Shown piece by piece: positions 767 through 60,110 of a stretch of DNA of 64,000 nucleotides. Origin of the DNA: a virus; the IMG/VR virus record IMGVR_UViG_3300017917_002759, positions 36,841-100,840 of that record; one strand, 5' to 3'. The number at the start of each line of letters is the position of its first letter. The first letter of the stretch is position 1. Position numbers and translations under genes: made by a program. A model generated the notes under the pieces. The model did no database searches and was not told where the DNA came from. It saw only the letters and a list, made by a program, of their open reading frames with translations.

Positions 767-1390
767 ATGGCAATATTAAAAAATACCACAGTATCCGGAT
801 CAAACCTATCGGTTTTAATACCGATAGGTACAACTGCCGAACGTCCTGGTACACCTTTAACAGGAATGATTCGTTATAACACTTCTCTTGTAGTCCCAGA
901 AACTTATACGGGACTAGTATGGGAACCATTGTATCCTGTAGGATCTATTATGTACTTTGCAAGAAGTACAGCACCCGATGGATGGTTAAAAGCCAATGGT
1001 GCTAGTGTTTCAACTACAACTTATGCGGCGTTATTTAATAACATAGGATATACCTGGGGCGGCGGCGGAGCCAGCTTTAATCTTCCAGATCTTAGAGGAG
1101 AATTTCCTAGATCATGGGACGACGGTCGAGGCGTAAATAGTGGTAGAAGTTTTGCTTCGGGCGAAGGACAAGATTGGAAAGGATTTTATCAAAGTAATAT
1201 TGGTTCGAATACAACGTCTTACTCCCATGGTGAAATATATATGGGAAAAACAATCTTTGGAACCTTTGCGGGTTCTCCAGGAATGTTTGGCGGACGATGG
1301 GCAGCACCTGCTGCTGCTATTGGTACTGCTTGGGACGGTTCAGAAATTAGACCAAGAAATCGAGCATTATTAGCTTGTATTAAATATTAA
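767..1390 (+). CDS. Tail-collar domain fibre protein, paralogue 1
   Basis: GTTAERP N-terminal motif; PDGWLKANGA...LPDLRGEF.R...RPRNRALLACIKY collar signature. Confidence 0.85.
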   Translation: MAILKNTTVSGSNLSVLIPIGTTAERPGTPLTGMIRYNTSLVVPETYTGLVWEPLYPVGSIMYFARSTAPDGWLKANGASVSTTTYAALFNNIGYTWGGGGASFNLPDLRGEFPRSWDDGRGVNSGRSFASGEGQDWKGFYQSNIGSNTTSYSHGEIYMGKTIFGTFAGSPGMFGGRWAAPAAAIGTAWDGSEIRPRNRALLACIKY

Positions 1391-1406
1391 TAACATAGGA
1401 ACAAAA

Positions 1407-1766
1407 ATGAAAATTTACAATTATCATCCAGATACATATGAATACTTAGGCGAAGGAGTAGCAGATCCCGATCCTCTCGAGCCAGGTAATTGGTTAATAC
1501 CTGGAAGTTCCGTAACTTTTTCTCCGCCAGATCCAGTCGAAGGAAAGAAAATACATTTTGAAGATGGTGCTTGGGTATATAAGGATATTCCACCTCCGCC
1601 CGAAAATCCAACTGATAACTTTACCTATTCAGACTTTAGAAAATTTGAGTATCCAGATTTCGCTGATTATCTCGACGGTATTGTTAAAGGTGATCAACAG
1701 CAGATTGACGACTATATTGCTAAGTGTCTAGCAGTTAAAGCAAAGTATCCAAAACCTACGGAGTAA
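1407..1766 (+). CDS. Tail fibre assembly-like protein
   Basis: IYNYHPDTYEYLG..ADPDPLEPGNWLIP pattern of Tfa-like proteins; lies between fibre genes. Confidence 0.65.
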   Translation: MKIYNYHPDTYEYLGEGVADPDPLEPGNWLIPGSSVTFSPPDPVEGKKIHFEDGAWVYKDIPPPPENPTDNFTYSDFRKFEYPDFADYLDGIVKGDQQQIDDYIAKCLAVKAKYPKPTE

Positions 1767-1775
1767 ATTTTAAAG

Positions 1776-2384
1776 ATGGCAACCCTTCAAGGTTTAACTG
1801 TTAATGATACAGGTTTCCTTAGACTAGCAGTCGGAACTACTGCACAACGACCGGCAGCACAGATCGGTGCTGCTCGATTTAACACCACTACTCAACAAGA
1901 AGAGTGGTCAGACGGTGTCACATGGTATGAATTAGTTCCAACTGGTGCTGTTAGATATTTTGCAAGAAATTCTGCGCCCGACGGTTGGGTTAAAGCTAAC
2001 GGTGCAGGTCTTTCTACTTCTACATATGCAAATTTGTTTGCAGTAATAGGTTATACTTGGGGCGGTTCGGGAGGAACATTTAACGTGCCCGATATGAGAG
2101 GAGAATTTCCAAGAGTCTGGGATGACGGCCGAGGAGTAAATTCTGGTCGAAGCTTTGCTAGTTTTGAAGATCAAGACTGGAAAGGATTTTATCAAAGTAA
2201 CGTAGGTTCGGGCACCACTGCATACTCTCACGGACCAGTATATATGGGTAAAACTATCACAACCTATACTGGTAACTTATTTCTAGGACACTGGTCAGCT
2301 CCGGGTTCTTCATGGGGTACAGCTTGGGATACTTCTGAAATTAGACCAAGAAATGTATCATTATTAGCATGTATTAAGTTTTGA
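1776..2384 (+). CDS. Tail-collar domain fibre protein, paralogue 2
   Basis: Same collar motifs as 767-1390. Confidence 0.85.
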   Translation: MATLQGLTVNDTGFLRLAVGTTAQRPAAQIGAARFNTTTQQEEWSDGVTWYELVPTGAVRYFARNSAPDGWVKANGAGLSTSTYANLFAVIGYTWGGSGGTFNVPDMRGEFPRVWDDGRGVNSGRSFASFEDQDWKGFYQSNVGSGTTAYSHGPVYMGKTITTYTGNLFLGHWSAPGSSWGTAWDTSEIRPRNVSLLACIKF

Positions 2385-2393
2385 GGTATTAAC

Positions 2394-3005
2394 GTGGCCA
2401 CTTTAAAAAATATTACTATTGACGACACTGGAGCATTTGTTTTTCCTAGCGGAACAACTGCACAAAGACCGTCGCCGACAACAGGAATGATTCGTTATAA
2501 TACAGATATTGCTGCTCCTGAATTTTATACTGGATTAATATGGACCCCATTAATACCCACCGGAGCTATAGAATTATTTGCAACCTCAACAGTTCCTCAA
2601 GGCTGGCTAAAAGCTAACGGCGCATCAGTTTCAACTACAACTTATGCGGCGTTATTTAATGCCATAGGATATACCTGGGGCGGCGGCGGAGCCAGCTTTA
2701 GTCTTCCAGATCTCAGGGGAGAATTTATTCGTGCTTGGGATGATGGAAGAGGAGCAGATAGCGGAAGAGGGTTTGCTTCATTCCAAGACCAAGATTGGAA
2801 AGGTTTTTATCAAAGTAACGTAGGTTCAAACACAACAGCATATAGCCACGGTCCAGTATATATGGGCAAAACAATCTTTGGATCTTTTACAGGTAACTTA
2901 TTCGGTGGTAGATGGGCAGCTCCTGCCGCTGCATCCGGAACTAGATGGGATACTTCAGAAATGCGTCCAAGAAATCGAGCTCTAATGGCCTGTATTAAGT
3001 ACTAA
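2394..3005 (+). CDS. Tail-collar domain fibre protein, paralogue 3
   Basis: Same collar motifs; GTG start. Confidence 0.85.
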   Translation: MATLKNITIDDTGAFVFPSGTTAQRPSPTTGMIRYNTDIAAPEFYTGLIWTPLIPTGAIELFATSTVPQGWLKANGASVSTTTYAALFNAIGYTWGGGGASFSLPDLRGEFIRAWDDGRGADSGRGFASFQDQDWKGFYQSNVGSNTTAYSHGPVYMGKTIFGSFTGNLFGGRWAAPAAASGTRWDTSEMRPRNRALMACIKY

Positions 3006-3049: not shown

Positions 3050-3787
3050 ATGTTCAGAATTAAAAAACAAAAAAATTCATTTAAATTCTATTCTTCTCTG
3101 CCAGCAGTTACTAAAGAATTTCCAATAATAGAATCAAAATCGTTTAAAAGAAATTGGATTAGACCTGTTGCAGAATCTTATAAATCCATAACTTCCGATA
3201 TTAAAAATTTTGGAATTCCTTTTTCTGGAGCAATAAAATGTCCAGGAATTTTTTCTGCAATGAATACTGGTTGGATTTTAACTTCTTGGTTTGATTTCAT
3301 TATCGAAACTAAAAATAACGGAGAATCGTGTAGTTTTAAAATTCCGCCGTTTTTAAAAGACGAGGTAAAATTTTCAAATTACAATCAACCGTTAATTAGT
3401 TTTATGAATTTAAATCTGCCTACTATGAAAATTCCGGTACCAAATAATTCATTAGATATTTTAATAAAAATAACTACTCCGTGGGCAGTAGAAATACCTA
3501 AAGGTTGGAATTTATTGGTATTACCAGTTAGTTATTCAGATGATGTTAGATTTACTGCAAGCACAGGTATTTTAAAACCCGGTGATAGAGAAATCAATCC
3601 TCAGTTATTTTGGCATCAAGGTGATGGAACAGAACTTGTAGAAGCAGGAACACCTCTTTGTCAATTAATTCCTATACCAGACAATCAAGTTAATTTTGAT
3701 TTTGATTGTCTAGATTACGATGAAAATCAGAAAAAAGAGCAAGCAAGATATTCCTTCAAAAATGTTTGTAGGTTTATAACAAAATGA
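3050..3787 (+). CDS. 'KCPG' family protein 1 (possible dUTPase-like fold)
   Basis: KCPG, PW.VEIPKGW and AGTPLCQLIP motifs shared with the next two ORFs. Confidence 0.6.
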   Translation: MFRIKKQKNSFKFYSSLPAVTKEFPIIESKSFKRNWIRPVAESYKSITSDIKNFGIPFSGAIKCPGIFSAMNTGWILTSWFDFIIETKNNGESCSFKIPPFLKDEVKFSNYNQPLISFMNLNLPTMKIPVPNNSLDILIKITTPWAVEIPKGWNLLVLPVSYSDDVRFTASTGILKPGDREINPQLFWHQGDGTELVEAGTPLCQLIPIPDNQVNFDFDCLDYDENQKKEQARYSFKNVCRFITK

Positions 3788-4530
3788 TATTTAAGAAAAA
3801 ACCAAAATTTAAATTTTATTCGAGCGTTCCGGGTGTAGTTGAGCAATATCCTATTTTATCAACAAAGGAAGTTCGACACTTATGGATTAAAAAAGCTTTA
3901 GAAATTTATAAAAAAAGAACATCAAATTTATCATCTTATGGTCCTCAATGTGTCAGTGCTGCAAAATGTCCAGGAATAAAAGATTTAGGAAATTTAGGTT
4001 GGACTGTAACTACTTGGTTTGACTTAATTATTGAAACTAACGGAAAAAATCAATTTGCATGGAAAGTACCTGCAACATTTCCGCAGAGCCTGCAACAAAT
4101 AACTAATTATGTAAAAGAACCTATAAAAGTTATAGACCTAACTCATTTAGAAAATCAAGTTCCAGTTCCGCCGTACAGCTTAGATTTGTTAGTTAAAATT
4201 TCAATGCCGTGGAGCGTGGAAATTCCTAAAGGTTGGAATTTATTAATGGTTCCTATTAATTACTCCGATGATACGAGATTTCAATGCTCTAGCGGAATTT
4301 TACGATCTGGAAATTTTGTAGAAGTTAATCCTCAGATATTTTGGAACGTATTATATGGACAAGAATTAATAAAAGCAGGAACACCTCTTTGTCAATTAAT
4401 TCCTATACCTGATCAATCTTTTGATATTGAACATCACTGTCTGAACATAACAGAAGAAGAAACGGCTCGAAAGAATAGTTTCTATTTTAGAAAAGGATGT
4501 ACATTTTTAAGGAATCCAAATGTTGTTTAA
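3784..4530 (+). CDS. 'KCPG' family protein 2
   Basis: Paralogue; ATGA-coupled to previous gene. Confidence 0.6.
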   Translation: MIFKKKPKFKFYSSVPGVVEQYPILSTKEVRHLWIKKALEIYKKRTSNLSSYGPQCVSAAKCPGIKDLGNLGWTVTTWFDLIIETNGKNQFAWKVPATFPQSLQQITNYVKEPIKVIDLTHLENQVPVPPYSLDLLVKISMPWSVEIPKGWNLLMVPINYSDDTRFQCSSGILRSGNFVEVNPQIFWNVLYGQELIKAGTPLCQLIPIPDQSFDIEHHCLNITEEETARKNSFYFRKGCTFLRNPNVV

Positions 4531-5257
4531 AAAAGAAAAAATTGAATTTTATTCAACAAATGTAAATTCGTTATATTCTTTTCCGATCGAACCAGCCTCT
4601 AAAATAAAATTTAGTTGGTTAGAAAGGATGCGTACAACTCTCAAAAATAATCCTAAATATCAGTATCATCATACTTCCAAATGTCCGGGAATATTTACAC
4701 CTTATAAGTATGGATTTGTACTGAGAACTTGGTATGATTTCAAAGTTATCACAAATGGAGATTTAATGAATATCGAATTTCCTAATAACGATATATTTTT
4801 GAATACCAACGAAGGAATAAGTCATCACGATCCGGATTGGCTTGTAAATTTTTTCGACAATCAAACGATTGAAGGTAAAAAATGTCATCAAAGTACAGTT
4901 AAAATTAGCACTAGCTGGCATGTTCATTTACCTAAGGGATGGTTATTATTGCAAACTAATATACCCTACAACGAAGAAAATCGATTCACACCTGCAACTG
5001 GAATATATGATCCAACAGTTAATAATCAAATAACAGTACCTTTATTTTGGCATGAATTAAAATCGGAAACCCTTGTAGCAGCAGGTACACCATTATGTTA
5101 TCTGCTACCGATAAAAATAGGTGAGTTTGATTACGAAGTTCGAGAATCGACTCGAAGAGAAGACCAGTGGATGATTTTTAATCTAAGAAGAAATAATACT
5201 TTTTTAAGAAACTACGATTTAATGTCTCGAGTTTCTAAGAAATTTTTTCAAAAATAG
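4520..5257 (+). CDS. 'KCPG' family protein 3
   Basis: Paralogue (KCPG, PKGW, AGTPLC). Confidence 0.6.
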   Translation: MLFKKEKIEFYSTNVNSLYSFPIEPASKIKFSWLERMRTTLKNNPKYQYHHTSKCPGIFTPYKYGFVLRTWYDFKVITNGDLMNIEFPNNDIFLNTNEGISHHDPDWLVNFFDNQTIEGKKCHQSTVKISTSWHVHLPKGWLLLQTNIPYNEENRFTPATGIYDPTVNNQITVPLFWHELKSETLVAAGTPLCYLLPIKIGEFDYEVRESTRREDQWMIFNLRRNNTFLRNYDLMSRVSKKFFQK

Positions 5258-5830
5258 TTACTGAAAACTATCTCCGTGTATCCATCCTACTATGCAATAT
5301 CGAATTCCTTTAGTAACCTCAGTTACTCTATGAATTAGATATGACGGAAAAATTACAATACTTCCTTTCCTAACACTAGTATATTCAGAAAAAGACGGAA
5401 TAAACTCTAGAGTCCCGCCTTCAAATTCGTTAGGATCAGATAGTAGAATAGAAAAACTTAATTTTCTAGTAGATATATTTGTAGGACCAAAATCATTGTG
5501 CCAATCATAGTGCGATTTTTCTGCATCAGTATATCTAAACATTAACGGGGGGTCGTAGTCCTCAAATCCTTTAATGTTAAAATTGTAGAATTTTTTATTA
5601 GCATCAAAAACTTTTTCTAAAATTTTTGATGTAACAAGTTTAGGAAGTTCTTTCATCGCGATTTCAACCACTCGTATATCGTCCGTCTTACCAGTAATTT
5701 TAGAACCTATTGTTTTTCCGCTGACCCACTTATCGTCTAATATTTTTATCAGTGTGTCACACTCTTGAGTAGAAAACATATTTCCAACAATGATTAAATT
5801 TAGAAATTCGTTTTGTTTATTTTTATTCAT
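5258..5830 (-). CDS. 2OG-Fe(II) oxygenase (prolyl-hydroxylase/PKHD-like)
   Basis: YDWHND (HxD), RKLSFS, FEGGTL, FPSYLIHRV, GIRYCIVGW; start moved to ATG 5830, which couples to the upstream gene. Confidence 0.9.
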   Translation of the reverse strand: MNKNKQNEFLNLIIVGNMFSTQECDTLIKILDDKWVSGKTIGSKITGKTDDIRVVEIAMKELPKLVTSKILEKVFDANKKFYNFNIKGFEDYDPPLMFRYTDAEKSHYDWHNDFGPTNISTRKLSFSILLSDPNEFEGGTLEFIPSFSEYTSVRKGSIVIFPSYLIHRVTEVTKGIRYCIVGWIHGDSFQ

Positions 5831-6365
5831 TATGATGAAGTCTATTAACAATTTGATCGTGTGCGTGATTAGCATAAGGACCATTTTTTCTAACATAATG
5901 AAAAAATGCTTGCGTCTGCCAATTTTGATGAATCATTTGATCTCTCCAATGCTCAATAGCACACCCTCGGTATATACAAGCATCGCCACGATTTAATATT
6001 ATCTGAAAATCTTGATCATTGCTTCTTGCCCAAAACGACCACGGTGACAGTGCATAATCTAGAGTAATTGTAAAACTGATTTCACAAGATTCTCTATCCA
6101 CATGTCTTTTTAAAATTTCTCCCCATTTATAAATTCTAGAATAATTATATGTTGGGATCAATTCCTCTCCCACTTCGTCTTCTACTTTTTTATGACACAA
6201 CGCTTGTATATCATTAAAAATTCCGTAAAAAGAAATGCTTTTTTTACATTGTACATCGTTGTAGTTTATGTTCGCTCCAGTTTGTTCAGACAAAAACATT
6301 CTCTGAGACATCGATCGACATATATCGTCTTTTATGAATTTTTTTGAAATAATAAAATCTTTCAT
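5823..6365 (-). CDS. 2OG-Fe(II) oxygenase-like protein
   Basis: YSRIY..G..LKRHVDR.SCEIS, GDACIYRG, EHWR, QAFFHYV. Confidence 0.75.
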   Translation of the reverse strand: MKDFIISKKFIKDDICRSMSQRMFLSEQTGANINYNDVQCKKSISFYGIFNDIQALCHKKVEDEVGEELIPTYNYSRIYKWGEILKRHVDRESCEISFTITLDYALSPWSFWARSNDQDFQIILNRGDACIYRGCAIEHWRDQMIHQNWQTQAFFHYVRKNGPYANHAHDQIVNRLHHNE

Positions 6366-6366
6366 C

Positions 6367-8010
6367 TTAATTTACAATTTTTCCTATTTCTGGAAACCAC
6401 ACATAATCAAGATGAGAATTTTTTAAAGTTTCAATTGCTTCTGCAGGCTCTTCTATAAGCGGTTTTCCTGCTAAATTAAAACTAGTATTAAGTAAAACAC
6501 CGAAACCTGATATTTTTTTAAACTCAGTTAGCAACTCATAGATATGACCATCCTTGCTTGTAACTGTTTGAATTCTACATGTATTATCTGCATGAATTAC
6601 TCCTGAAATTTTGTTCCTTGCATCGGGCTTTACTGGAAAGCTCATAGTCATAAATGGACAGCTTGTAATGTGCCCCATTTCAAAAAATAAAGGAGCATCC
6701 TCTTCTAACACCATGGCAGCAAATGGTCGATACCATTCTCTGTTTTTAATTTTATTAACGATATCTTTTGCATCGGGGTGTGCTGGATTAAAAATAATCG
6801 ATCTATTACCCAATGCTCGCGGACCGCTTTCTGCTAGTCCGTTATATATTCCAACGCTTTTGTAATTATATAAAAGTTTAGCAATGTCTGATACATTACA
6901 CGATTCTCCCTCAATTCCTTCAAGAGAATATTTTTTTCCATGCACAAACGTATGCTGTATTGGTTTGATTACTGGATCCTGCGATTCGTTCCGATAAACA
7001 TACATAGCTCCTCCTAAACTGTTACCAGAATCATCTGCTAATGGTTCAAAGTAAAATTCAACATCCGGAAATTGAGTAGTATAGTAGTGATTTGCTACAA
7101 TATTTAATCCATAGCCGCCGGTTATGCATATCTTCTTCAGGCCTGTTTTTTCTATAGCTTTTTTTATCAAATGACAAACAGCTTCCTGTGACTGAACTTG
7201 AACTTGGTAAGCATAGTCTGCAAAAAATTGATAATTTTCTTTTGTTATATTTTTTCTAGAATGCACTTGTAATTCTTTATTAATAGCATACCACGATCCA
7301 GGAACTTCTGAACGGTCAAATAATAAATCGTTAGGAATATTTCCTGATAAAAATAATTTTGGAGCATTTGGATTAGGTCTCCCGTATGATGCTAATCCCA
7401 TAGTTTTTCCGTTTTCTAATACGCTCTGCTGGATTAGGGATGTTGCTGTTTCATAAACAGAAACTATACCGTACATGCTCTTGCATTGATGTTCGCACTT
7501 AGGATTTTTTTCGTATTGTTTTTGCATCCATCTATGTGTTTCGGCATTATATACATCAAACCAAAAATTCTTATATATTTCATGAAAATAACAAGGATAA
7601 CTTGCTTTAAAAATAGTTTCACATTCTCTAATATTATCATTTGCGTAAATCGATCCACTTCGATCAACAACAATAATTGCAGCTTCTTCAAACCCGCTAT
7701 TATAAAAAGCTAATGCAGCATGTTGAAGATGGTGTGTTTTAGAAAGATCAACAATAGCCTTCAACCCAGTTTTTTTCTGTAGATAAAATAGCCAGGTCAT
7801 TAGTGCCGGATGATCCGGGGCTGGTGCTCCTATAACGGCGTGATCTATAGGTCCTTTGGCTTCGGCTATTGCTCTATCAACTGATGCAAAAGGCTCGGCA
7901 TCTCTTTTCCATTTGGTCAGCCGTTCCTCTTTATAAAAAAGTTCTACTTCTCCGTCGTTGATGATACCAACCGAAGAATCGTGTAATGGACTGACACCTA
8001 ATACTCTCAT
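6367..8010 (-). CDS. Carbamoyltransferase (NodU/CmcH family)
   Basis: HDSS, EERL, HHLQHA, GKTMGLASYG, ESGPRALGNRS, REWYRPFA, LNTSFN. Confidence 0.93.
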   Translation of the reverse strand: MRVLGVSPLHDSSVGIINDGEVELFYKEERLTKWKRDAEPFASVDRAIAEAKGPIDHAVIGAPAPDHPALMTWLFYLQKKTGLKAIVDLSKTHHLQHAALAFYNSGFEEAAIIVVDRSGSIYANDNIRECETIFKASYPCYFHEIYKNFWFDVYNAETHRWMQKQYEKNPKCEHQCKSMYGIVSVYETATSLIQQSVLENGKTMGLASYGRPNPNAPKLFLSGNIPNDLLFDRSEVPGSWYAINKELQVHSRKNITKENYQFFADYAYQVQVQSQEAVCHLIKKAIEKTGLKKICITGGYGLNIVANHYYTTQFPDVEFYFEPLADDSGNSLGGAMYVYRNESQDPVIKPIQHTFVHGKKYSLEGIEGESCNVSDIAKLLYNYKSVGIYNGLAESGPRALGNRSIIFNPAHPDAKDIVNKIKNREWYRPFAAMVLEEDAPLFFEMGHITSCPFMTMSFPVKPDARNKISGVIHADNTCRIQTVTSKDGHIYELLTEFKKISGFGVLLNTSFNLAGKPLIEEPAEAIETLKNSHLDYVWFPEIGKIVN

Positions 8011-8013
8011 TTT

Positions 8014-9600
8014 TTAATCCTCAAAATAATAATTGGTTTTTAGAAAATCATATAAGGTTTGTTCTTGGTTAGCAGCTTCCTCCCAGCGCGATTTTCTTCT
8101 TTCAAATTCTTTAAACATTTGATCGTATTTAATTTTATGATCAGTTAAATCTTGTGTTTGAAATATTTTTTCAGTAATATCGTCAAATACAAAATAGTTC
8201 ATTCCTGCCGCCACCCAATTAATTCCCGATGTATCCGGCAAAGAATAATCATACATTTTACTTTGCGATAATGTATTAAATCCGCCAATTAATTGATTAG
8301 GAACTATAAATTTTAGATATTCTCTTTGAGAATTTTCCTTCCAATAATTAGTATCGTCTCTAATACTCAACGCATAATGCAAAGAAATAAATTCTGCAAA
8401 CGACCTAAACATATTATAGGTTGTTTTATTATATACATCTCGATCCCATTGGGTTATTGAGTTTTTTGATATTGTTTTTAATAATTTGAACAAAAATTCA
8501 TGGACACTGTATAGGCCGTTAGATTCTAAAGGCTCTAAAAACCCTGCACTTAGTCCTATAGCAACTACATTTTTTACAAATGTTCGTTCATGAATCCCTA
8601 CACGCATCGTTACATCTTTAAATTTTAAATTATCTATTTCTTCTTTTGATCTAGGAATTAACATTTTGTTCGACATGAGATAATTTTTAAATTCTTCAAG
8701 TGCATTATCTGGATCTATATGTTTATCTGAATAAACATATCCAGTCCCTAATCTGCTCCATAGCGGAGTATTCCACACCCATCCATGCCCTATTGCGGTA
8801 CAATGTGTAAATGGTTCGATTTCTTTCGGCTTATCTTTATAAGGAACTTGGCATGCCCAAGCTCGGTTATTAATTAAAATATCTTCAAAAGATTTAAATG
8901 GTTCTTTTAAAGTTTGTCCTATTAATAAACTTCTAAACCCGGTACAATCGATATAAAGATCTGAAACAACAGTGTCACCGGTGTCTAAAATTAATTCTTT
9001 TATTCCGTAGTCGTCTGTTTTTATATCAGTAACAGTGGCTGGTATTAATTTAACACCCCGAGGCAGACAATATTTTAATTTTAACCAAGCTCCGAATTTA
9101 GTAGCATCAAAATGATATGCTACATCATTCTTTGGGGTAAAATTATCAAAGTTTTTTTTAGAATTTAAACTAAACTTGTTGTTTCGAAATAGTGCTGCTG
9201 AAGGAAAATAACAATCTACAAAATCTTGATTTGGAGTTTCCGGGTACAGTGCTTTTTTAATTAACCAGTCTTGAGTAGATTTTGAAACATTGTTTAAAAC
9301 CGGCGCACCGAAAGGGTAATGAAACGATCCAGAATCCTTTTCGTAAAAATCAGTAAATTTAATGCTCATTTTAAGAGTAGCATCTGTATATTTTATAAAA
9401 TCTTTTTCATCTATATCAAGATAATGACAAAAAGTTTTAATTGCACCTAAGGTACTTTCCCCAACACCTATAATAGGAATGTTTGGACTTTCTATCACAG
9501 TAATTTCTTTTTCTGGAAAAGATTTTACAAATGCAGCGGCCGACATCCAGCCCGCACTTCCTCCACCGACGATTGTGATAGTGTTAATTTTTTTAATCAT
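8014..9600 (-). CDS. Flavin-dependent (tryptophan-halogenase family) halogenase
   Basis: GGGSAGW, GVGEST, catalytic-Lys region DATLKMSI, DCTGF, GWVWNTP, GFLEPLESNG. Confidence 0.92.
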   Translation of the reverse strand: MIKKINTITIVGGGSAGWMSAAAFVKSFPEKEITVIESPNIPIIGVGESTLGAIKTFCHYLDIDEKDFIKYTDATLKMSIKFTDFYEKDSGSFHYPFGAPVLNNVSKSTQDWLIKKALYPETPNQDFVDCYFPSAALFRNNKFSLNSKKNFDNFTPKNDVAYHFDATKFGAWLKLKYCLPRGVKLIPATVTDIKTDDYGIKELILDTGDTVVSDLYIDCTGFRSLLIGQTLKEPFKSFEDILINNRAWACQVPYKDKPKEIEPFTHCTAIGHGWVWNTPLWSRLGTGYVYSDKHIDPDNALEEFKNYLMSNKMLIPRSKEEIDNLKFKDVTMRVGIHERTFVKNVVAIGLSAGFLEPLESNGLYSVHEFLFKLLKTISKNSITQWDRDVYNKTTYNMFRSFAEFISLHYALSIRDDTNYWKENSQREYLKFIVPNQLIGGFNTLSQSKMYDYSLPDTSGINWVAAGMNYFVFDDITEKIFQTQDLTDHKIKYDQMFKEFERRKSRWEEAANQEQTLYDFLKTNYYFED

Positions 9601-11111
9601 TTGGCACCTAATATTGATAAAAATTTTCTATGATCAAATACTGATTTTGCACTATCATAAACTGTTGAAAGATATTTTTTAAAATAAATGTTCCACTCTG
9701 ATTGTAGTTGCTTATCTTCGAATGATTTCTTATAAACAGAGGGCTCGAGCTCTCCATTGCCTCCTAACACGTAAAGCCAATTTGCTTGCCCAAAAATTTT
9801 AAAAAGTGATTGATCATCGTTATCGATTGGTCGTTGTTTCCATAAATTGATTGTCTTTTTTAGATTATCTGGAGCATTCTCCCAAGTGAATTTTTTCCAA
9901 AATTCAGTATCGTCTCGGTGAGTCACATAATGAGAATATAAAAATTCCATAATGTGTGTATTCATAGAAACTATTTTTTCATTATAGCTATCTATAACGT
10001 CTTGATTTAAATCTTCTGATAAAGTTAAACTATTTTTTAATAGTTCGAGACTTCTTATTGACATCATTATCGATGTAGCTTCTAAAGGTTCGGTAAAACC
10101 GCTCGACAATCCGATAGCCACACAGTTATTGATCCATGTTTTTTCGTAGCACCCAGCCTTAAATTTAAATGTTTTTACTGGTTCAATTTTTTGTTTCAAC
10201 ACTGATTCAATTTCTTCTTGAGCCTCTTTCTCGTTGATATATGAACTATCGAAAATATAACCGCAACCCGTTCTATGCTGAAGGGGAATTTTCCACATCC
10301 AACCATGTTTCATTGCTAAGGCAGTAGTATAAGGTTCAACATCATTTTTACTCGGTAAGAAAAATGCTAGAGCAGTATCAACCGGGAGAAACTTATTATA
10401 ATTAATCCAGGGAGAATTGAATTTTTTTCCGATAATTAGTCTTTGGAAACCTGTGCAATCAAAAATAAAATCTAAATCTAATAATTTATCATCTTCTAAA
10501 ACTAGAGATTTTATTTTTTTATTTTGATCAAAAACAATATCTTTTATGTTAGATTCTATTCGATTTATATTTCTATCTTTTGCAATTTTTTTAAGATATT
10601 CTGCTAATAATCTAGCATCAAAATGTAGAGCAAAGGTTCCCACTTCTTTTAAATTATTTGCCGAATCGACGAAAAACGGAACTTTATTTTTTTCACTATA
10701 TACACAATAAGTTGTAGTTCTTCCTGGATTGATTTCGTTAGCTAACATACCATGTGTTAAAAATGATCCTTGTACATTAAAGAACCTAGTTCCGTAATTG
10801 CATTCATTAAGGTGAGGATTAGATACCGCAAATGGATGATAATAATATTCATTATCACCGTTCCAATTTTCAAATTTTATTGATATTTTTAAACTACCAT
10901 TGGTTTCTTTGATTACAGATTTATAATCAATATCTAATTGTTCAAAAAAATCAATAATATTAGGTGTAGTTCCCTCACCAGCACCTAATATGCCAATATC
11001 ACTGCTTTCTACTACAGTAATATTGGCATTAGGAAATAATTTTCTTGAAAAAAGAGCGGTAAGCCAACCAGCAGTACCGCCACCTGCGATAATAATATTT
11101 TTGGTATCCAT
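9597..11111 (-). CDS. Flavin-dependent (tryptophan-halogenase family) halogenase
   Basis: GGGTAGW, GAGEGT, GSLKISI, DCTGF, GWMWKIP, GFTEPLEATS. Confidence 0.92.
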   Translation of the reverse strand: MDTKNIIIAGGGTAGWLTALFSRKLFPNANITVVESSDIGILGAGEGTTPNIIDFFEQLDIDYKSVIKETNGSLKISIKFENWNGDNEYYYHPFAVSNPHLNECNYGTRFFNVQGSFLTHGMLANEINPGRTTTYCVYSEKNKVPFFVDSANNLKEVGTFALHFDARLLAEYLKKIAKDRNINRIESNIKDIVFDQNKKIKSLVLEDDKLLDLDFIFDCTGFQRLIIGKKFNSPWINYNKFLPVDTALAFFLPSKNDVEPYTTALAMKHGWMWKIPLQHRTGCGYIFDSSYINEKEAQEEIESVLKQKIEPVKTFKFKAGCYEKTWINNCVAIGLSSGFTEPLEATSIMMSIRSLELLKNSLTLSEDLNQDVIDSYNEKIVSMNTHIMEFLYSHYVTHRDDTEFWKKFTWENAPDNLKKTINLWKQRPIDNDDQSLFKIFGQANWLYVLGGNGELEPSVYKKSFEDKQLQSEWNIYFKKYLSTVYDSAKSVFDHRKFLSILGAK

Positions 11112-11117
11112 TAAGGA

Positions 11118-11125
11118 TATTTATA
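11118..11125 (-). promoter_or_regulatory. T4-type late promoter TATAAATA heading the halogenase operon
   Basis: Exact TATAAATA on minus strand, 6 nt before ATG 11111. Confidence 0.7.
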
Positions 11126-11149: not shown

Positions 11150-12706
11150 TTATGATTTTGTAATTTCATACACAAACCCACTTCTAAAGGGCTGCTGCAG
11201 ATATCTATTTTCTGCCGATTGGAGACTTGATAAATCAGTAAATCCGCCACCACTGTTTGTTAATCTATTTTGTACCGCTGAATTAGTAAGCCAAGTATTA
11301 GTTTTATCTAGATTATAATCAGGTCTAGATTCTAACATACAAGCAACGACCCCTGCAACTTGTGGCGAAGCCATAGAAGTCCCGCCAATCTTAGTGCTCT
11401 TAAAATCAGTATTAGCAGGATAATCTACTGATCCTGAATTTGTTTCGATATTAGAACCTTCAGGTATAGCACTGATAATATTTTCTCCAGGAGCAAACAC
11501 AGTAATTCGAGGACCTGTATTACTGAATAAACTTTTTGCTTCTGTTGTCGCAGCTCTTATTGAACCGACACATGCGACTCCCGGTACTGCTGACGGAGTA
11601 GATCCTTGGTGATAAAATACTTGTCCCACCCCGGTTTTGTTATAAAAATTATTAAAATCTTGTCCAGTCGGCACATCGATTTTGTGTGCTTCGTTGCCGG
11701 CAGCGCCTATCAAAATTACGCCGTCGTCAATACAATCTTCAATATCTGCATCTACAGAAGAAACTCGAACAGGATGTATATAAGTAAATGGAGCAGATGA
11801 TCCTTGCCTATTGTAAATTGTTTGGATCATGCCGTATGCAGAGATCATGGTTGTACCGGACCAAGGTGTTCCGCGATACTCTCCTCCGCTGATATTGGTA
11901 TAAGTTGTAAAATATTCCCAACTCATATTAACTACAGTCGGTCTTCTATACCCAGTTTCTGCAATAATAGGTTTTAAATTATGCCACGCTCTAATCATGT
12001 TAAAACTAGCTGATACACCAAATGCCGCAGGATTGTCTATAATAGTAATCGCATAAATGTTGGCTCTTTTAGCCCAACCGTACAATCTGCCAGCAGCAGT
12101 TCCAGCCACGTGGGTTCCATGACCGTCTGGATCAGTATAATGATTAGGGTCTTGAGTGTATGTTCCTGTTAGGCCGCTAATACTAGGCCAATTGACTTGT
12201 TGAAATCTACTGGCTGTACCAGCTAAATTTAACCATTCCGGATGATTAAGAAGAATTCCGCTATCTTGTATAACAATATCAACACCGTTGCCTGTTAATG
12301 TGTAACCGTGATTATAATTTAACGTGCCCGATGTTGCAAAAAAATTATCTGGGAATGAACAGGCAGGGATGGCCCAGTTATAATGATTAGAATTTAGATC
12401 CGGTTCTTTTGAATAAGTCCTTGCCTCCTCTATAATGCTAGGCCTAATAAAAATACCATTTTCTATCTTAGTACCAAATCTTACATCGACTATTCTCGGA
12501 TCATTTTTTAATAATATTGCTTCCTCTAACGTTAAGACAAAATCAACGTTTCGTTTGCTGTCAATTTTTTCATTATATAATTCTACTTGACGGTTTGGCA
12601 TCCACTGATTATGATTTGTACCGCTGACCATATCTTCGATAAATGCATCAACATCGACTCCTTTTTTTAACGTTACAACTGCTTTATTTTGATCTTCTGT
12701 ACTCAT
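11150..12706 (-). CDS. Subtilisin-like S8 serine peptidase
   Basis: Triad motifs VIQDSG, GHGTHVAG, GTSMASPQVAG; oxyanion AAGN. Confidence 0.93.
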   Translation of the reverse strand: MSTEDQNKAVVTLKKGVDVDAFIEDMVSGTNHNQWMPNRQVELYNEKIDSKRNVDFVLTLEEAILLKNDPRIVDVRFGTKIENGIFIRPSIIEEARTYSKEPDLNSNHYNWAIPACSFPDNFFATSGTLNYNHGYTLTGNGVDIVIQDSGILLNHPEWLNLAGTASRFQQVNWPSISGLTGTYTQDPNHYTDPDGHGTHVAGTAAGRLYGWAKRANIYAITIIDNPAAFGVSASFNMIRAWHNLKPIIAETGYRRPTVVNMSWEYFTTYTNISGGEYRGTPWSGTTMISAYGMIQTIYNRQGSSAPFTYIHPVRVSSVDADIEDCIDDGVILIGAAGNEAHKIDVPTGQDFNNFYNKTGVGQVFYHQGSTPSAVPGVACVGSIRAATTEAKSLFSNTGPRITVFAPGENIISAIPEGSNIETNSGSVDYPANTDFKSTKIGGTSMASPQVAGVVACMLESRPDYNLDKTNTWLTNSAVQNRLTNSGGGFTDLSSLQSAENRYLQQPFRSGFVYEITKS

Positions 12707-36356: not shown

Positions 36357-36812
36357 ATGAATTGGTATGATCGAGTTTCAAAGGATATTAGTTCTATTCC
36401 AGATGCCGCGGCATTTTTTGAGGCCGAATTACAAGCAGCAAAAATTGATGCTCGCATAGCGGGAAATATTGAAAAAGCCGCTGCCAGTATGCCCGGCATC
36501 GTTGAAAATCGATTTAATCAACTTCAAGAAATCGAAGCGATATTAGAGTATCTAAATATCGAACTTCGTAGGCTTCGCAGTCAGCATTTTCGTAAATATC
36601 TTGAAAACTATCAACGAGCTTTGTCCTCTAGAGACTGTGAAAAGTTTGTAGAGGGCGAGTCTGATGTTGTAGATTTTGAAAAAATCATCAATGAGTTTGC
36701 CTTGATGAGAAACAAGTGGCTAGGTATTATCAAAGCTCTTGATATCAAACAATGGCAACTATCAAATATTGTTAAACTTAGAACTTCGGGGTTAGAAGAC
36801 GCAACTCTCTAA
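36357..36812 (+). CDS. uvsY: Recombination mediator UvsY-like
   Basis: Helical, 151 aa; IIKALDIKQWQLSNIVKLR C-terminus; position after uvsX. Confidence 0.75.
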   Translation: MNWYDRVSKDISSIPDAAAFFEAELQAAKIDARIAGNIEKAAASMPGIVENRFNQLQEIEAILEYLNIELRRLRSQHFRKYLENYQRALSSRDCEKFVEGESDVVDFEKIINEFALMRNKWLGIIKALDIKQWQLSNIVKLRTSGLEDATL

Positions 36813-37444
36813 TATCTTGTAGGATCCCAGAGTATTTTATTTTTTCCGCTGTAATGATCAGCATATCTACCAAAAGTTTGATCAACGGGATTCCATTCTT
36901 GAGAATTCAAAGGAATATATTTTATATTTTTATCAAAGAATAATTTATTCAATATTCCTTGCCCGTCATACTGATAATCATTCTCAAGATATTCAGATAA
37001 AAAATCTTTTGTCTTTAATAAGACATCTTTAACCATGTACATAAATCCTGCATTAAAATATCTATTTCTATCAATGCCTAGAGTTTCAGCTAATTTAGGT
37101 ACAGATTTACCAGGATCAGTGACCGCAGAAAAATTATCTTTACATAAATCAAAAAGATTAGGAGCATTATCTTTAATAACATAATCTGAATCAAAATATA
37201 TTATTTGATCATATTCTAAAAAATCGTACATCTTAAGTTTTTGATAATCTAAATGTTTATGTGCCGCAGGTTTAAAATCGTCTGCCCTTGTAAGCAAATA
37301 ATAATCGGCTTTGTTTTTAGTAGCATATAATCTAGCATTTCTTTCACTAATAGCATACATGTCTTGAATATATGTGTATGACGATGCTTTAGAAGTTAGA
37401 ATATGATTTGGAACATTAATCTGAAAAACTAATTTTTTTGTCAT
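36809..37444 (-). CDS. Glycosyltransferase (GT8-like)
   Basis: YFDSD DxD motif, YFNAGF, DGQGILN, HYSG. Confidence 0.8.
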   Translation of the reverse strand: MTKKLVFQINVPNHILTSKASSYTYIQDMYAISERNARLYATKNKADYYLLTRADDFKPAAHKHLDYQKLKMYDFLEYDQIIYFDSDYVIKDNAPNLFDLCKDNFSAVTDPGKSVPKLAETLGIDRNRYFNAGFMYMVKDVLLKTKDFLSEYLENDYQYDGQGILNKLFFDKNIKYIPLNSQEWNPVDQTFGRYADHYSGKNKILWDPTRY

Positions 37445-37513
37445 GATTATTTTTAAAAACTTATTTATGTACGTATTTTATATTATAAATACTAAAATTA
37501 AAAGGAGTTAGGT

Positions 37514-38413
37514 TTGAAATCACTTGTTACAGGCGGTGCTGGATTTATTGGATCACATATAGTCGATCGTCTTGTTAGTTTAGGTCATGAAGTAATTGTG
37601 ATTGATAACGAAGTGTCACAAGTCCATGATCATTTTTATTATAATGATAATGCTGTTTATCATAAATTAGACATCGTCGATTATAATGAAACAAAAGATT
37701 TATACCAGAATGTTGATTATGTATTTCATTGTGCAGCAGAATCGAGAATACAACCAACGATACTAAATCCACTAGGCGCTATTAAAACAAATACATTAGG
37801 AACAGGCGCAGTGCTTCAATGCGCTAGAGAAGCAGGAGTTAAAAAGGTAATTTACAGTTCCACGTCATCTGGCTACGGATTAAAAAATATCCCCCCATTA
37901 AATGAAAGCATGCCCGATGACTGCTTAAATCCGTATTCAGTTTCAAAAGTGTCTGGGGAAAAACTTTGTACAATGTATAATAACCTCTACGGCCTAAAGA
38001 CCATCATTTTTAGATATTTTAACGTGTATGGAGATCGAGAGCCGCTTAGGGGTCCGTATGCCCCTGTAGTTGGATTATTTTTAAGACAAAAGAAAGCTAA
38101 TGAGCCTTTGACTATCGTACCAGATGGAACTCAGCGTAGAGATTTTACACATATAAGTGATGTTGTCGAAGCTAATATATTAGCCATGACCGTAGATAAT
38201 CACAATCATTATGGTGAAGTTTTCAATGTTGGTACAGGAACTAATCATTCTGTATTAGAATTAGCTTCGATGATTTCTGATAATATGAAAATGATCGAAC
38301 CTCGTAGAGGAGAAGCATATATTACCTTAGCCGACAATACAAAATTAAGATCAGTTTTTGGATGGGAGCCTTCTAAAAAATTAGAAGATTACGTAAAAGA
38401 AAAATTATGTTAA
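37514..38413 (+). CDS. NAD-dependent nucleotide-sugar epimerase/dehydratase
   Basis: TGGAGFIG, YSVSK (YxxxK), RYFNVYG, RDFTH. Confidence 0.95.
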   Translation: MKSLVTGGAGFIGSHIVDRLVSLGHEVIVIDNEVSQVHDHFYYNDNAVYHKLDIVDYNETKDLYQNVDYVFHCAAESRIQPTILNPLGAIKTNTLGTGAVLQCAREAGVKKVIYSSTSSGYGLKNIPPLNESMPDDCLNPYSVSKVSGEKLCTMYNNLYGLKTIIFRYFNVYGDREPLRGPYAPVVGLFLRQKKANEPLTIVPDGTQRRDFTHISDVVEANILAMTVDNHNHYGEVFNVGTGTNHSVLELASMISDNMKMIEPRRGEAYITLADNTKLRSVFGWEPSKKLEDYVKEKLC

Positions 38414-39018
38414 GAGAACTATTTGACAAACATCAATGCGATAAAGGGAAAAAACACTCTTATGATTTGTTCTATCAAAAAGAATTTGAAAAAGATAGAT
38501 TAAATTCTTTTAATATTTTAGAAATAGGAATTTTTAAAGGTGCCAGTGCAAAATCATGGATTGAATATTTTCCAAATTGTATTTTTTATTGTATTGACAT
38601 TACAATTAACGACGAAGTCAAAAATTTTATAGATCATCCTAGAATAAAATATTTAGAATTTGATAGCACAGATCGAAATATAACAGAAAAAATAAAAAAT
38701 ATTTGGAACATCGAGTTTGATATCGTTATCGAAGACGGTCTTCATACTCCGGAAGCTAACCAAAAAACATTCGAAAATATTTTTCCATTATTAAAGAAAA
38801 ACGGAAGATATTATATTGAAGATTTTTTCCCAATTCACTTAATGTCTATTCAAGACTTTGAAAGTAAATCCGGTAAATGGGCCAAGAAAAATAAAAATTG
38901 GGATATACAGAAAGTTCAGAACTTCTTGAATTTTATATCTCAATATAATTTTGACACATTTGATAATCGATATAGATCAAATGAACAAGATAGTTTCATT
39001 ATTAAAGTTACAAAATAA
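38407..39018 (+). CDS. Class I SAM-dependent (sugar O-)methyltransferase-like
   Basis: DK..HSY, ILEIGI..GAS, FDIVIEDGLH, YYIED. Confidence 0.8.
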   Translation: MLRELFDKHQCDKGKKHSYDLFYQKEFEKDRLNSFNILEIGIFKGASAKSWIEYFPNCIFYCIDITINDEVKNFIDHPRIKYLEFDSTDRNITEKIKNIWNIEFDIVIEDGLHTPEANQKTFENIFPLLKKNGRYYIEDFFPIHLMSIQDFESKSGKWAKKNKNWDIQKVQNFLNFISQYNFDTFDNRYRSNEQDSFIIKVTK

Positions 39019-39019
39019 A

Positions 39020-39799
39020 TTAATTATTATTTTGCCTATGTTTAATATTTAAAGATTTAACAGCTCTCAATAACTCTAGATCTATTCCTAATGTATTTGC
39101 GTGTTCTATAATTGCAGAAACATCTTTAGGAAAACAAGCACCGCCAAATCCAAATTTGCCATCTGGTCCGGGGACGTCCCAGTGGCTATCACCTAATCTC
39201 GAATCATTGGCTGCTATATTTTTTATATCGACCCAACTAACGTTCAAAGATTTAGCCAAATGATACATGTCGTTCATAAATGTAACCTTTGAAGCTAAAA
39301 ATGAATTAGCAATATACTTGAACAAGGATGCAGTTGATATATTAGTTTTATAATATTTTTTTGCCGATATCGCGCTAGATTTTATAATAGCTTCAGCTTC
39401 GTTAGTCCAGGGTACTTCCCCACCGATAAGTACCCACGAAGAATTAATGTAGTCATCTATTGAATTTGCCGCAGTTAAAAACTCCGGAGCATGTACAAGA
39501 TTCGGAAACTTTACTTGTAAATTAGCATAAGTTTTTGGTGGAACTGTACTTTTAGAAATAATAACTTTATTATATCCTTGTAGCTCGTCTAATACTGAAA
39601 AAAGAAAACTTTCGTCACATTCGCCAGATTCAAGCATAGGAGTCGGAACACACAGATAAACAGCATCGCATGTTTTAATTTCTTCTATGCTTGCTGAATT
39701 ATTTTTTAATTTTGGATCTCTTATAACTAAATTATCTTTTTTGTGAGCTTCGGCAACTGCGGTACCGACATACCCTAGCCCCATTATTCCAATTTTCAT
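39020..39799 (-). CDS. ugd: UDP-glucose/GDP-mannose dehydrogenase family (short form)
   Basis: GLGYVG, CVPTP, KSTVPP, PEFL, GFGGACFPKD. Confidence 0.9.
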   Translation of the reverse strand: MKIGIMGLGYVGTAVAEAHKKDNLVIRDPKLKNNSASIEEIKTCDAVYLCVPTPMLESGECDESFLFSVLDELQGYNKVIISKSTVPPKTYANLQVKFPNLVHAPEFLTAANSIDDYINSSWVLIGGEVPWTNEAEAIIKSSAISAKKYYKTNISTASLFKYIANSFLASKVTFMNDMYHLAKSLNVSWVDIKNIAANDSRLGDSHWDVPGPDGKFGFGGACFPKDVSAIIEHANTLGIDLELLRAVKSLNIKHRQNNN

Positions 39800-39878
39800 A
39801 AATTACCTTGCATCAAAAATATTATTTAGTGAATAAACTACACACATAAATATTATTCAATTATCAGAGCAATCATAT

Positions 39879-40646
39879 ATGAAAATAGTTTTAGTCACTG
39901 GCGGGTTTGATCCACTACATTCTGGGCATATACAATATTTTGAAGAAGCACGTAAGCTAGGCGATCGACTGATAGTCGGCATTAACAGCGATACTTGGCT
40001 GACACGCAAAAAAGGTCGCCCATTTATGCGTTGGGATGACAGACTATCTGTGATCCGCAGCCTTAAATGTGTCGATGGTACGGTCCAATTCAACGACGAT
40101 GACGGCACAGCCAAGGATGCTATCCGTAAAGTCCGACTAAACTATCCCAGCGACACAATAATCTTCGCCAACGGTGGAGATCGTACTGACAAAAATATCC
40201 CCGAGATGGACATCAAAGACAATGACCTAAAATTTGTCTTCGGTGTTGGTGGCTTCAACAAAATGAATTCCAGTTCTTGGATATTAGAAGAATGGAAATC
40301 ACCCAAAACTGAACGTCCTTGGGGTTACTATCGTGTTTTACATGAAATACCGGGCTGTAAGGTCAAAGAATTAACTGTCGATCCTGGTCAAAGTCTAAGC
40401 CTACAGCGACACCGGGATAGAACTGAAATATGGTTAGTGGCTGAAGGCGAATGTATGGTCGAGCATCATGGCCATGCTGTGGAAACCGATGAATATTTGG
40501 TGCATACACCTCTACACACGCACCACGAATATAGAGTTCCGAGAACTAAATGGCATCGATTATTCAATCCCTATGATAAACTCTGTAGGATCGTAGAAAT
40601 ACAGTACGGTGATCGATGCGAAGAAGAGGATATAGAAAGAAAATGA
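39879..40646 (+). CDS. Cytidylyltransferase fused to mannose-6-phosphate-isomerase-type cupin
   Basis: GGFDPLHSGH (HxGH), ANGGDR; ERPWGYY, SLSLQRH, VEIQYG. Confidence 0.9.
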   Translation: MKIVLVTGGFDPLHSGHIQYFEEARKLGDRLIVGINSDTWLTRKKGRPFMRWDDRLSVIRSLKCVDGTVQFNDDDGTAKDAIRKVRLNYPSDTIIFANGGDRTDKNIPEMDIKDNDLKFVFGVGGFNKMNSSSWILEEWKSPKTERPWGYYRVLHEIPGCKVKELTVDPGQSLSLQRHRDRTEIWLVAEGECMVEHHGHAVETDEYLVHTPLHTHHEYRVPRTKWHRLFNPYDKLCRIVEIQYGDRCEEEDIERK

Positions 40647-42113: not shown

Positions 42114-42114
42114 C

Positions 42115-44044: not shown

Positions 44045-44054
44045 GGACAATGTT

Positions 44055-44708: not shown

Positions 44709-44710
44709 CA

Positions 44711-56416: not shown

Positions 56417-56419
56417 TGG

Positions 56420-57472: not shown

Positions 57473-57473
57473 A

Positions 57474-58145: not shown

Positions 58146-58182
58146 GTTATTCTCCTTGAAAAGATATATTATTTAAATTATA

Positions 58183-59054: not shown

Positions 59055-59055
59055 T

Positions 59056-59124: not shown

Positions 59125-59150
59125 AAGGATATTTACAGTAAATAACTGTG

Positions 59151-60106: not shown

Positions 60107-60110
60107 AGTA

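Follow-up and report, generated by a model that had tools for sequence, protein, structure and literature searches.

Five minus-strand genes for two halogenases, a carbamoyltransferase and two 2-oxoglutarate (2OG)-Fe(II) dioxygenases lie at positions 5258–11111 of the viral DNA analyzed here, a 64,000-nucleotide window that comprises bases 36841–100840 of the 100,840-base IMG/VR record IMGVR_UViG_3300017917_002759 (CheckV completeness 28%) and along which positions are numbered unless another phage or contig is named. Their open reading frames (ORFs; 9597–11111, 8014–9600, 6367–8010, 5823–6365 and 5258–5896) and junctions confirm the tight coupling described in an original prediction made for this DNA, as well as the placement of the first gene 6 nucleotides (nt) downstream of TATAAATA. 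The two halogenase genes overlap by 4 nt (ATGA), the second is separated from the carbamoyltransferase gene by 3 nt, and a single nucleotide lies between the latter and the first dioxygenase gene. For the last gene, ATG 5830 (MNKNKQ...), which gives an 8-nt overlap with the preceding stop, is the most probable start, in preference to 5896. Together, the five genes make up a single operon with translational coupling, headed by a TAAATA promoter of the phage's own late type.

The terminase large subunit (TerL) of the carrier has its best match in Pseudomonas phage PA5oct (54% identity) and the next best in Sinorhizobium phage Phosso, Agrobacterium phage Atu_ph07 and Cronobacter phage GAP32, and the other products of the window include a 1119-residue sheath, a gp15-like protein, gp32, UvsX and helicases. 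Because of these TerL matches and this gene content, the carrier is classed, on its predicted proteins, as a PA5oct/Rak2-like jumbo myovirus with T4-like core genes and not as a classical T4-like phage; its earlier placement as T4-like does not hold in the strict sense. By megablast, the operon has no match among 50,697 phage records.

Enzymes encoded by the operon

The first two genes encode flavin-dependent halogenases of the family PF04820. HalA (504 residues; 9597–11111, minus strand; E = 7e-117) is of the HTVC008M type, with the halogenase of Pelagibacter phage HTVC008M as its nearest phage relative (41% identity) and bacterial tryptophan 5/6/7-halogenases as its nearest relatives in the Protein Data Bank (PDB; E = 5e-71). 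HalB (528 residues; 8014–9600, minus strand; E = 1e-104) is of the VirX1 type, aligning over its full length with VirX1 of cyanophage Syn10 (PDB 6QGM; E = 1e-96), and is 36–37% identical to gp41 and gp42 of Syn9. The two halogenases share 29% identity with each other, as against 55% and 64% with their respective orthologs in a relative phage. The flavin adenine dinucleotide (FAD) motif GxGxxG is present as GGGTAGW in HalA and GGGSAGW in HalB and is invariant across six homologs, as is the catalytic lysine (K75 in HalA); in HalB, the segment TLKMSIKF aligns with TYKNSIRF of VirX1, and K79 of VirX1 and PrnA acts as the haloamine carrier (PMC8407142). The WxWxIP motif reads GWMWKIP in HalA and GWVWNTP in HalB, where isoleucine is replaced by threonine, with GWVWNIP in the HalB ortholog of the relative. 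HalA contains EPLEAT, and both enzymes keep EPLE. HalA and HalB are thereby predicted to be two different, intact flavin halogenases.

HalB resembles VirX1 in its full-length match, FAD motif, catalytic lysine and EPLES segment; it differs in being ~37% identical and in having WVWNTP in place of WVWNIP. VirX1 itself is an active, iodide-preferring halogenase with a large open active site that takes bulky substrates, and no natural substrate is known for it (PMC8407142). The 100-kb record has no match to the flavin reductase family PF01613, and reduced flavin would therefore need to be supplied by the host. Halogenases are rare in phages, occurring in 65 of the 50,697 records. The relative phage encodes a third halogenase (contig L007, 966–2483) in which WMFEIP replaces WxWxIP and EPLQ replaces EPLE, which may be a variant with altered chemistry.

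The third gene (6367–8010, minus strand) encodes a 547-residue O-carbamoyltransferase of the NodU/CmcH family, in which PF02543 (Carbam_trans_N, Kae1-like; E = 2e-18) and PF16861 (Carbam_trans_C, YrdC-like; E = 2e-52) both score above cut-off. It matches phrog_1601 (E = 1e-123) and, in the PDB, 7XB6, TobZ, NovN and GdmN (E = 1e-44), and it is 34–40% identical to cyanophage carbamoyltransferases. Its sequence contains HHLQH, VVDRSG and ADDSGNSLGGA segments, which may correspond to the metal-binding His/Asp residues of the Kae1-like domain in TobZ; the N-terminal domain aligned weakly to the PDB chains. The two-domain architecture of Carbam_trans_N and Carbam_trans_C is that of TobZ, NovN, GdmN and CmcH, from which the phage enzyme differs in the weak similarity of its N-terminal domain and which belong to small-molecule antibiotic pathways.

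The fourth gene (5823–6365, minus strand) encodes a 180-residue protein of the Syn9 gp54 family (phrog_2954, E = 5e-42; 36% identity to Syn9 gp54) that has no Pfam match. An alignment of 25 homologs shows H88, D90, H139 and R141 to be invariant. The AlphaFold2 (AF2) model of the protein, with a predicted local distance difference test (pLDDT) score of 94, finds by Foldseek a Pseudomonas putida prolyl-4-hydroxylase (P4H) as its top match (E = 6e-9) and at least 500 matches at E ≤ 0.001, most of them 2OG dioxygenases. Given this modeled fold and the invariant HxD...H...R residues, we assign the protein, despite the lack of a Pfam match, as a predicted prolyl-hydroxylase-like 2OG-Fe(II) dioxygenase. 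The fifth gene product (190 residues from ATG 5830; 5258–5830, minus strand) is a P4H/PKHD-like 2OG-Fe(II) dioxygenase that matches PF13640 (2OG-FeII_Oxy_3; E = 2e-14) and phrog_61 (E = 1.5e-34) and has an HND...H motif; its nearest PDB relatives are a PKHD-type hydroxylase, PiuC and the collagen P4H of Bacillus anthracis. Both proteins thus have the 2OG dioxygenase triad HxD/E...H with a basic residue on a double-stranded β-helix (DSBH) fold, the smaller by its four invariant residues and modeled fold and the larger by PF13640 and its motif, and the two 2OG oxygenases that had been proposed stand. The best structural or sequence neighbors of both are protein prolyl hydroxylases, namely the P. 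putida P4H acting on EF-Tu, the viral collagen prolyl hydroxylase of PBCV-1 and the B. anthracis P4H, from which they differ in that identity in the structural matches is 10–14% and the fold alone leaves the substrate unfixed. We rejected the PHROG labels 'ferrochelatase' (phrog_2954/3531) and 'DNA endonuclease (V)' (phrog_274/2297), because by motif and fold the proteins that match are DSBH dioxygenases; phrog_3531 is an apparent fusion of gp54-type and P4H-type dioxygenases.

Late-type promoter of the operon

The TATAAATA core lies at 11118–11125 (minus strand), 6 nt ahead of the HalA start codon (ATG 11111), a near-leaderless spacing. Exact copies of this sequence are not over-represented (3 in 64 kb versus 7.9 expected); among 6-mers in the 40 nt upstream of genes, their core TAAATA shows the strongest enrichment, preceding 27 of 109 genes against 1.7 expected (16-fold), an enrichment that exceeds that of the Shine–Dalgarno word AAGGAG. 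It stands upstream of the genes for the sheath, tube, TerL, head–tail adaptor, giant fibers and a 907-residue fiber-like protein, and of a glycosyltransferase island. It is not found upstream of the genes for gp32, UvsX, primase or the helicases; in several of these cases, TTGACx/TATAAT-like (sigma70-like) sites stand there instead. The operon shares with the structural genes a TATAAATA-like −10 element that has no −35 element, as in T4-type late units. With TAAATA so enriched and placed ahead of the sheath, tube, TerL and fiber genes, late expression of the operon is well supported by motif, and the late-type promoter of the original prediction is upheld.

TAAATA falls into two spacing classes, at 3–7 nt and 16–34 nt from the start codon, and HalA (6 nt) belongs to the short class together with the tube and TerL (5 nt). 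The short class (tube, TerL and HalA) has no Shine–Dalgarno sequence, and the 16–34-nt class has AAGGAG (sites include 26092, 30073, 28511, 19741 and 11111); the short spacing would imply near-leaderless late mRNAs. Since no terminator-like site lies between HalA and the gene upstream of it, which encodes an S8 subtilase, read-through from upstream late genes is also possible. Comparable elements occur elsewhere: (N)TAAATA lies 23–34 nt upstream of the first halogenase-cluster gene in Syn9 (gp40), P-TIM40, S-CREM1 and S-SRM01. The paper on PA5oct omics describes sigma70-like motifs only and does not mention late promoters.

Halogenase partners and fiber genes around the operon

The island had been taken to consist of five genes, and three more that were overlooked, at 3050–5257 on the plus strand, belong to it and make it larger. 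Convergent with the operon, they encode tandem paralogs (245, 248 and 245 residues) of the Syn9 gp43/DUF6065-like family (phrog_7084), which are related to DUF6065 clusters and are 30–37% identical to Syn9 gp43. C64 and C204 are invariant among them, in the motifs KCPG and AGTPLC(Q), and PKGW is also conserved. An AF2 model of the family (pLDDT 88) matches a dUTPase by Foldseek (E = 1e-4) and aligns with 11 dUTPases by VIA-align at Z scores of 9–10 over 106–139 residues. No Pfam family matched the paralogs, even at E = 5, and we rejected the three KCPG proteins as true dUTPases: the modeled fold agrees, but sequence membership and catalytic motifs do not. At 5235–5280, the last gp43-like gene and the last operon gene meet stop against stop (TAG at 5255–5257; TAA on the other strand at 5258–5260) with zero intergenic space, and a short inverted repeat, ATAGTT...AACTAT, covers both convergent stops and may be a minimal bidirectional terminator.

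Among cyanophage records with a gp43 homolog, an annotated tryptophan halogenase lies within ~2 kb in all 14 and abuts the homolog in 11. For a wider sample, we fetched 80 IMG/VR loci with the family, collapsed them to 38 lineages at 90% identity and scored the 8-kb flanks. A halogenase occurs in 29 lineages, directly adjacent in 18, along with a gp54-type dioxygenase in 18 and a carbamoyltransferase in 3; an S8 subtilase lies 2.5–5 kb from the gp43-like or halogenase genes in 8, including several of the loci L031–L066. Because a halogenase is found in 29 of the 38 lineages though just 65 of the 50,697 phage records have one, the genomic context marks the gp43 family as a dedicated halogenase partner and the most faithful one in phages. 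A further small protein touches this subject. It is encoded at 58183–58596 (minus strand), 47 kb from the halogenases here, is rich in tryptophan (8%), hydrophobic and probably membrane-bound, and matched no PHROG or Pfam family; its homologs adjoin VirX1-like halogenases in three viral contigs (L008, 3982–4269; L009, 1911–2252; L010, 826–1152).

The island is embedded in genes for fibers, as had been stated for the collar, fiber and subtilase genes that flank the operon. At 767–3005 (plus strand) lie three collar-domain mini-fibers of 207, 202 and 203 residues (767–1390, 1776–2384 and 2394–3005; PF07484 Collar; phrog_523 and others) and a 119-residue fiber-assembly-like gene (tfa-like, phrog_105), which are candidate substrates. 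The S8 subtilase-domain protein (11150–12706, minus strand; PF00082, E = 1e-25; phrog_9158, E = 2e-79) is directly upstream of the operon, and the 907-residue fiber-like protein and a 3544-residue giant fiber complete the flanks. In the phage collection, the S8 family is confined to Kyanoviridae (cyanomyoviruses); in S-CREM1 (115845–117524), it is located within the baseplate module, and a role for the protease as leader peptidase of a ribosomally synthesized and post-translationally modified peptide is, on that account, not favored. The N-terminal 'GTTAxRP...G..R.NT' module of the collar mini-fibers also starts hypothetical proteins beside the S-CAM8 carbamoyltransferase and recurs in Syn9 gp35, and it could serve small fibers next to such enzyme islands as a common means of attachment.

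In one relative phage, represented by two IMG/VR contigs, the whole block is syntenic at 51–81% amino acid identity. Its order is giant fiber, collar fiber, fiber-assembly-like gene, two collar fibers and three gp43-like genes, followed by the convergent genes for a 2OG dioxygenase, a gp54-type 2OG dioxygenase, the carbamoyltransferase, HalB and HalA, so that the copy number of three collar fibers and three gp43-like genes is conserved. This relative has two extra dioxygenases besides its third halogenase, and lacks the genes for the S8, 297-residue and 907-residue proteins.

Linkage to fiber genes extends beyond this pair, and the neighborhood survey that the original prediction had proposed bears it out. 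A P4H-like dioxygenase and a halogenase lie amid collagen-like and CBM5 tail fibers in L008 and upstream of tail and virion proteins in L009 and L010. The halogenase follows fiber and fiber-assembly genes in Syn9 and P-TIM40, a collagen-like protein in S-CREM1 and collagen-like fibers in the actinophage DSL-LC01; it lies between a tail-fiber gene and an adhesin-tip gene in S-SRM01, beside fiber-assembly-like genes in P-SSM2 and between terS and terL in HTVC008M. By gene content, then, halogenases adjoin predicted fiber, collagen-like or baseplate genes in most of the phage lineages examined.

Candidate substrates, rival explanations and wider sequence context

Halogenases and 2OG oxygenases had been said to occur individually in aquatic phages, a statement that overlooks a published cluster. 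Iyer, Abhiman, de Souza and Aravind described the halogenase/dioxygenase/dUTPase-fold cluster of Syn9 in 2010 and read it as a system for the synthesis of organohalogen secondary metabolites; the same paper predicts tail-collar and collagen-like proteins as dioxygenase substrates in certain bacterial operons (PMC2938197). In the same year, Sullivan et al. listed prnA, carbamoyltransferase, 2OG oxygenases and a 'ferrochelatase-domain' protein among cyanophage accessory genes (PMC3037559). The present island is of the Syn9 type by the identities of HalB, the gp43-family proteins and the gp54-type dioxygenase to their Syn9 counterparts, together with its fiber-adjacent position and late-type promoter. 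Like the gp40–gp54 array of the T4-like cyanophages Syn9 and Syn10 (NC_008296), which has two tryptophan-type halogenases, a gp43 dUTPase-fold cysteine protein and a number of unrelated 2OG dioxygenases, the gp54 family among them, it directly adjoins tail-fiber and fiber-assembly genes, and the array likewise has a late-type ATAAATA upstream of its first gene. It differs in having two dioxygenases, neither of the JmjC/MINA kind, where the array has ten, in including a carbamoyltransferase, in having three gp43 paralogs on the opposite strand and in combining one HTVC008M-type halogenase with HalB, where Syn9 has two VirX1-type copies; the carrier here is a PA5oct-like jumbo phage, and Syn9 is a kyanovirus. 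The cluster type is thus prior art (the Syn9 array in 2010 and VirX1 in 2019), from which the carbamoyltransferase and the PA5oct-like jumbo carrier set the present instance apart. The bacterial β-hydroxylase/PhyH dioxygenase operons (PMC2938197) also place dioxygenases beside tail-collar proteins, just as three Collar-domain proteins adjoin the island here; their sulfotransferase has no counterpart in our locus, which adds halogenases and a carbamoyltransferase, and the substrates of their dioxygenases are themselves predictions.

For the carbamoyltransferase, cyanophages offer a setting in which the acceptor could be a sugar. In P-SSM2 and S-CAM1, the gene is part of a heptose-nucleotide cassette bracketed by tail-fiber genes, which makes the O-carbamoylation of glycans envisaged in the original prediction plausible; in S-CAM8, it lies among fiber genes and dioxygenases. 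The cassette of these cyanomyoviruses (PSSM2_308–314 in P-SSM2; SXBG_00216–221 in S-CAM1) shares with our phage a homologous carbamoyltransferase (36% identity), adjacent 2OG oxygenase genes and flanking tail-fiber genes, and our phage likewise encodes a CTP_transf_like and cupin protein and sugar enzymes under late-type promoters. Its sugar genes are 26 kb away, however, and its carbamoyltransferase is coupled to halogenases instead. These sugar genes form a glycan-building island at 36809–46251 with two glycosyltransferases of family 8, an NAD epimerase/dehydratase, a methyltransferase, a short Ugd-like protein and the CTP_transf_like–cupin fusion, and TAAATA precedes 36809, 37514, 39020, 39879 and 45436. 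The fusion is reminiscent of two products of the cyanophage cassette with the carbamoyltransferase, the cupin and the heptose adenylyltransferase. The glycan island is a possible source of a sugar acceptor for the carbamoyltransferase.

Taken together, the locus would be a late-expressed island of the Syn9 gp40–gp54 type, inserted in the fiber/baseplate module of a PA5oct/Rak2-like jumbo myovirus, whose enzymes would be produced along with the virion proteins. The halogenases would use host-supplied reduced FAD, O2 and halide to form a lysine-bound haloamine that halogenates an electron-rich aromatic ring, and the dioxygenases would hydroxylate C–H bonds. The carbamoyltransferase would convert carbamoyl phosphate and ATP to carbamoyl-AMP and O-carbamoylate a hydroxyl on a sugar or at a position made by a dioxygenase, as in cephamycin biosynthesis, where a 2OG hydroxylase makes the hydroxyl that CmcH carbamoylates (PMC2938197 and established knowledge). 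The gp43-family proteins would be obligate partners of the halogenases, with a role that we leave unassigned. The most likely target would be a macromolecule made late, that is, the fiber or baseplate proteins or the glycans attached to them.

A late tailoring island that modifies the phage's own fiber or baseplate proteins, or their attached glycans, is the best-supported reading and ranks first, at a probability of roughly 0.45, and it is unproven; nothing in our analysis shows the identity of the substrate, and we infer a virion target. Tentatively, and with some doubt, we go further and suggest that the phage decorates its own host-recognition apparatus with the gp43-family proteins as dedicated halogenase partners, possibly one per collar mini-fiber.

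Several points weigh against a virion target. Fiber regions are plasticity hot-spots that may gather accessory genes, so that co-location could come about without a functional link, and S-PM2 and S-H38, two of ~12 contexts, have no clear structural neighbor of the halogenase. The timing is deduced from promoter motifs. The Foldseek matches of the DSBH fold include many small-molecule enzymes, and those who first described the cluster favored secondary metabolites (PMC2938197). In the searched literature, we found no report of halogenated virion proteins, nor of any modified virion protein in a phage with such a cluster; a proteomics paper on post-translational modification in marine phages searched for phosphorylation and acetylation only. 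Collagen, as a target of the prolyl-hydroxylase-like enzymes in this phage, is rejected because none of the 109 window proteins has a run of at least five G-X-Y repeats. The original prediction had singled out Trp-rich variable tips of the collar proteins as halogenation targets, an idea that has only adjacency to commend it: the tips vary only mildly and their tryptophans are invariant in all six homologs, as expected of structural residues, which they may simply be. Finally, the sequence in hand amounts to 28% of the genome by CheckV.

A small-molecule pathway, with a host metabolite, free amino acid or indole-type compound as its substrate and, as its product in the infected cell, an allelochemical, a secondary metabolite or a siderophore-like compound, is in our estimate rather unlikely, although precedent is on its side: small molecules are the substrates of every characterized relative of HalA and HalB (PrnA, RebH and PyrH; VirX1 in vitro), TobZ, NovN, GdmN and CmcH carbamoylate small molecules, the DSBH matches include HygX, OkaE and AsqJ, and organohalogen synthesis is what was proposed for the Syn9 cluster (PMC2938197). 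What such a pathway lacks here is a scaffold. Consistent with the earlier statement that no gene for a nonribosomal peptide synthetase (NRPS), polyketide synthase (PKS) or precursor peptide accompanies the enzymes, the NRPS condensation domain (PF00668) and the PKS ketosynthase domain (PF00109) are absent from the whole 100-kb record, no scaffold-forming gene is present, and the abutting genes of the tightly packed island leave no room for a precursor ORF. A metabolite made from a late promoter common to structural genes would, moreover, have only a short time in which to help the phage, and repeated insertion between fiber genes in unrelated phages would go unexplained. Remodeling of the host envelope, with surface glycans or proteins modified late in infection so as to block superinfection or the adsorption of progeny to debris, likewise fails to explain the adjacency to fiber genes, and we regard it as distinctly unlikely. 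Sugars are what speak for it, given that NodU-type carbamoyltransferases act on them, that the cyanophage carbamoyltransferase travels with heptose or lipopolysaccharide-type genes and that the present phage has many glycosyltransferases. All five enzymes look cytoplasmic and soluble, however, no export or flipping function was identified among the scanned island genes, and envelope glycan synthesis is not known to involve halogenases or prolyl-hydroxylase-like enzymes.

It is very improbable that the genes are unrelated passengers, whether independent morons or dioxygenases that merely consume 2OG, gathered in a recombination-prone fiber region. Translational coupling of the five genes, an ortholog order conserved at 51–69% identity, intact catalytic motifs in all the enzymes and the presence of the otherwise rare halogenases in most gp43-family lineages all oppose this explanation, despite the hypervariability of fiber regions, the variable island content among relatives (L007 has the third halogenase and two further dioxygenases, and only the present phage has the S8, 297-residue and 907-residue proteins) and the suggestion of 2OG drawdown by Sullivan et al. 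in 2010 (PMC3037559). Least probable of all is the modification of nucleotides or DNA, in which the dUTPase-fold proteins would bind a pyrimidine nucleotide and the other enzymes would decorate the base, giving hypermodified phage DNA. The modeled fold of the gp43 family (Z 9–10) would suit this explanation, a cysteine nucleophile could conceivably activate pyrimidine C5, and base hydroxylases of the TET/JBP type are themselves 2OG dioxygenases. The dioxygenases here are P4H/PKHD-like, unlike TET/JBP, and the gp43-family proteins have no Pfam dUTPase match at E = 5; the promoter is late-type, neither early nor middle, and the island, which has no thymidylate-synthase-like or kinase gene, is located in the structural module, outside the replication module.

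VirX1 and other viral flavin halogenases are valued as biocatalysts, and their natural substrates have been unknown since 2019; the cyanophage array has been without a function since 2010. The locus described here places that set of enzymes in a phage lineage of quite another kind, again tied to fiber genes and a late-type promoter. If the phage does decorate its own apparatus, this would be the first halogenated virion protein and would provide a natural substrate class for VirX1-type viral halogenases. With the virion as target, receptor-binding surfaces would be altered enzymatically, without mutation, which has implications for host range, for the cycling of halogens in water and for resistance to proteases and grazers. 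As a single uncultured instance of a recurring cluster, the locus supports the question and is no new kind of system.

Base composition varies along the window. G+C at third codon positions (GC3) is 0.17–0.24 in the island versus 0.23–0.34 elsewhere, and we did not take the low G+C of the island to indicate recent import, because the difference lies mostly at codon positions 1 and 2 and is weak evidence only. At 56000–64000, G+C rises to 0.45–0.52, and small genes there have textbook TTGACA-17-TATAAT sites, for example, upstream of 62324–62548 and 62969–63211; this segment looks like an early region transcribed by a sigma70-type host polymerase.

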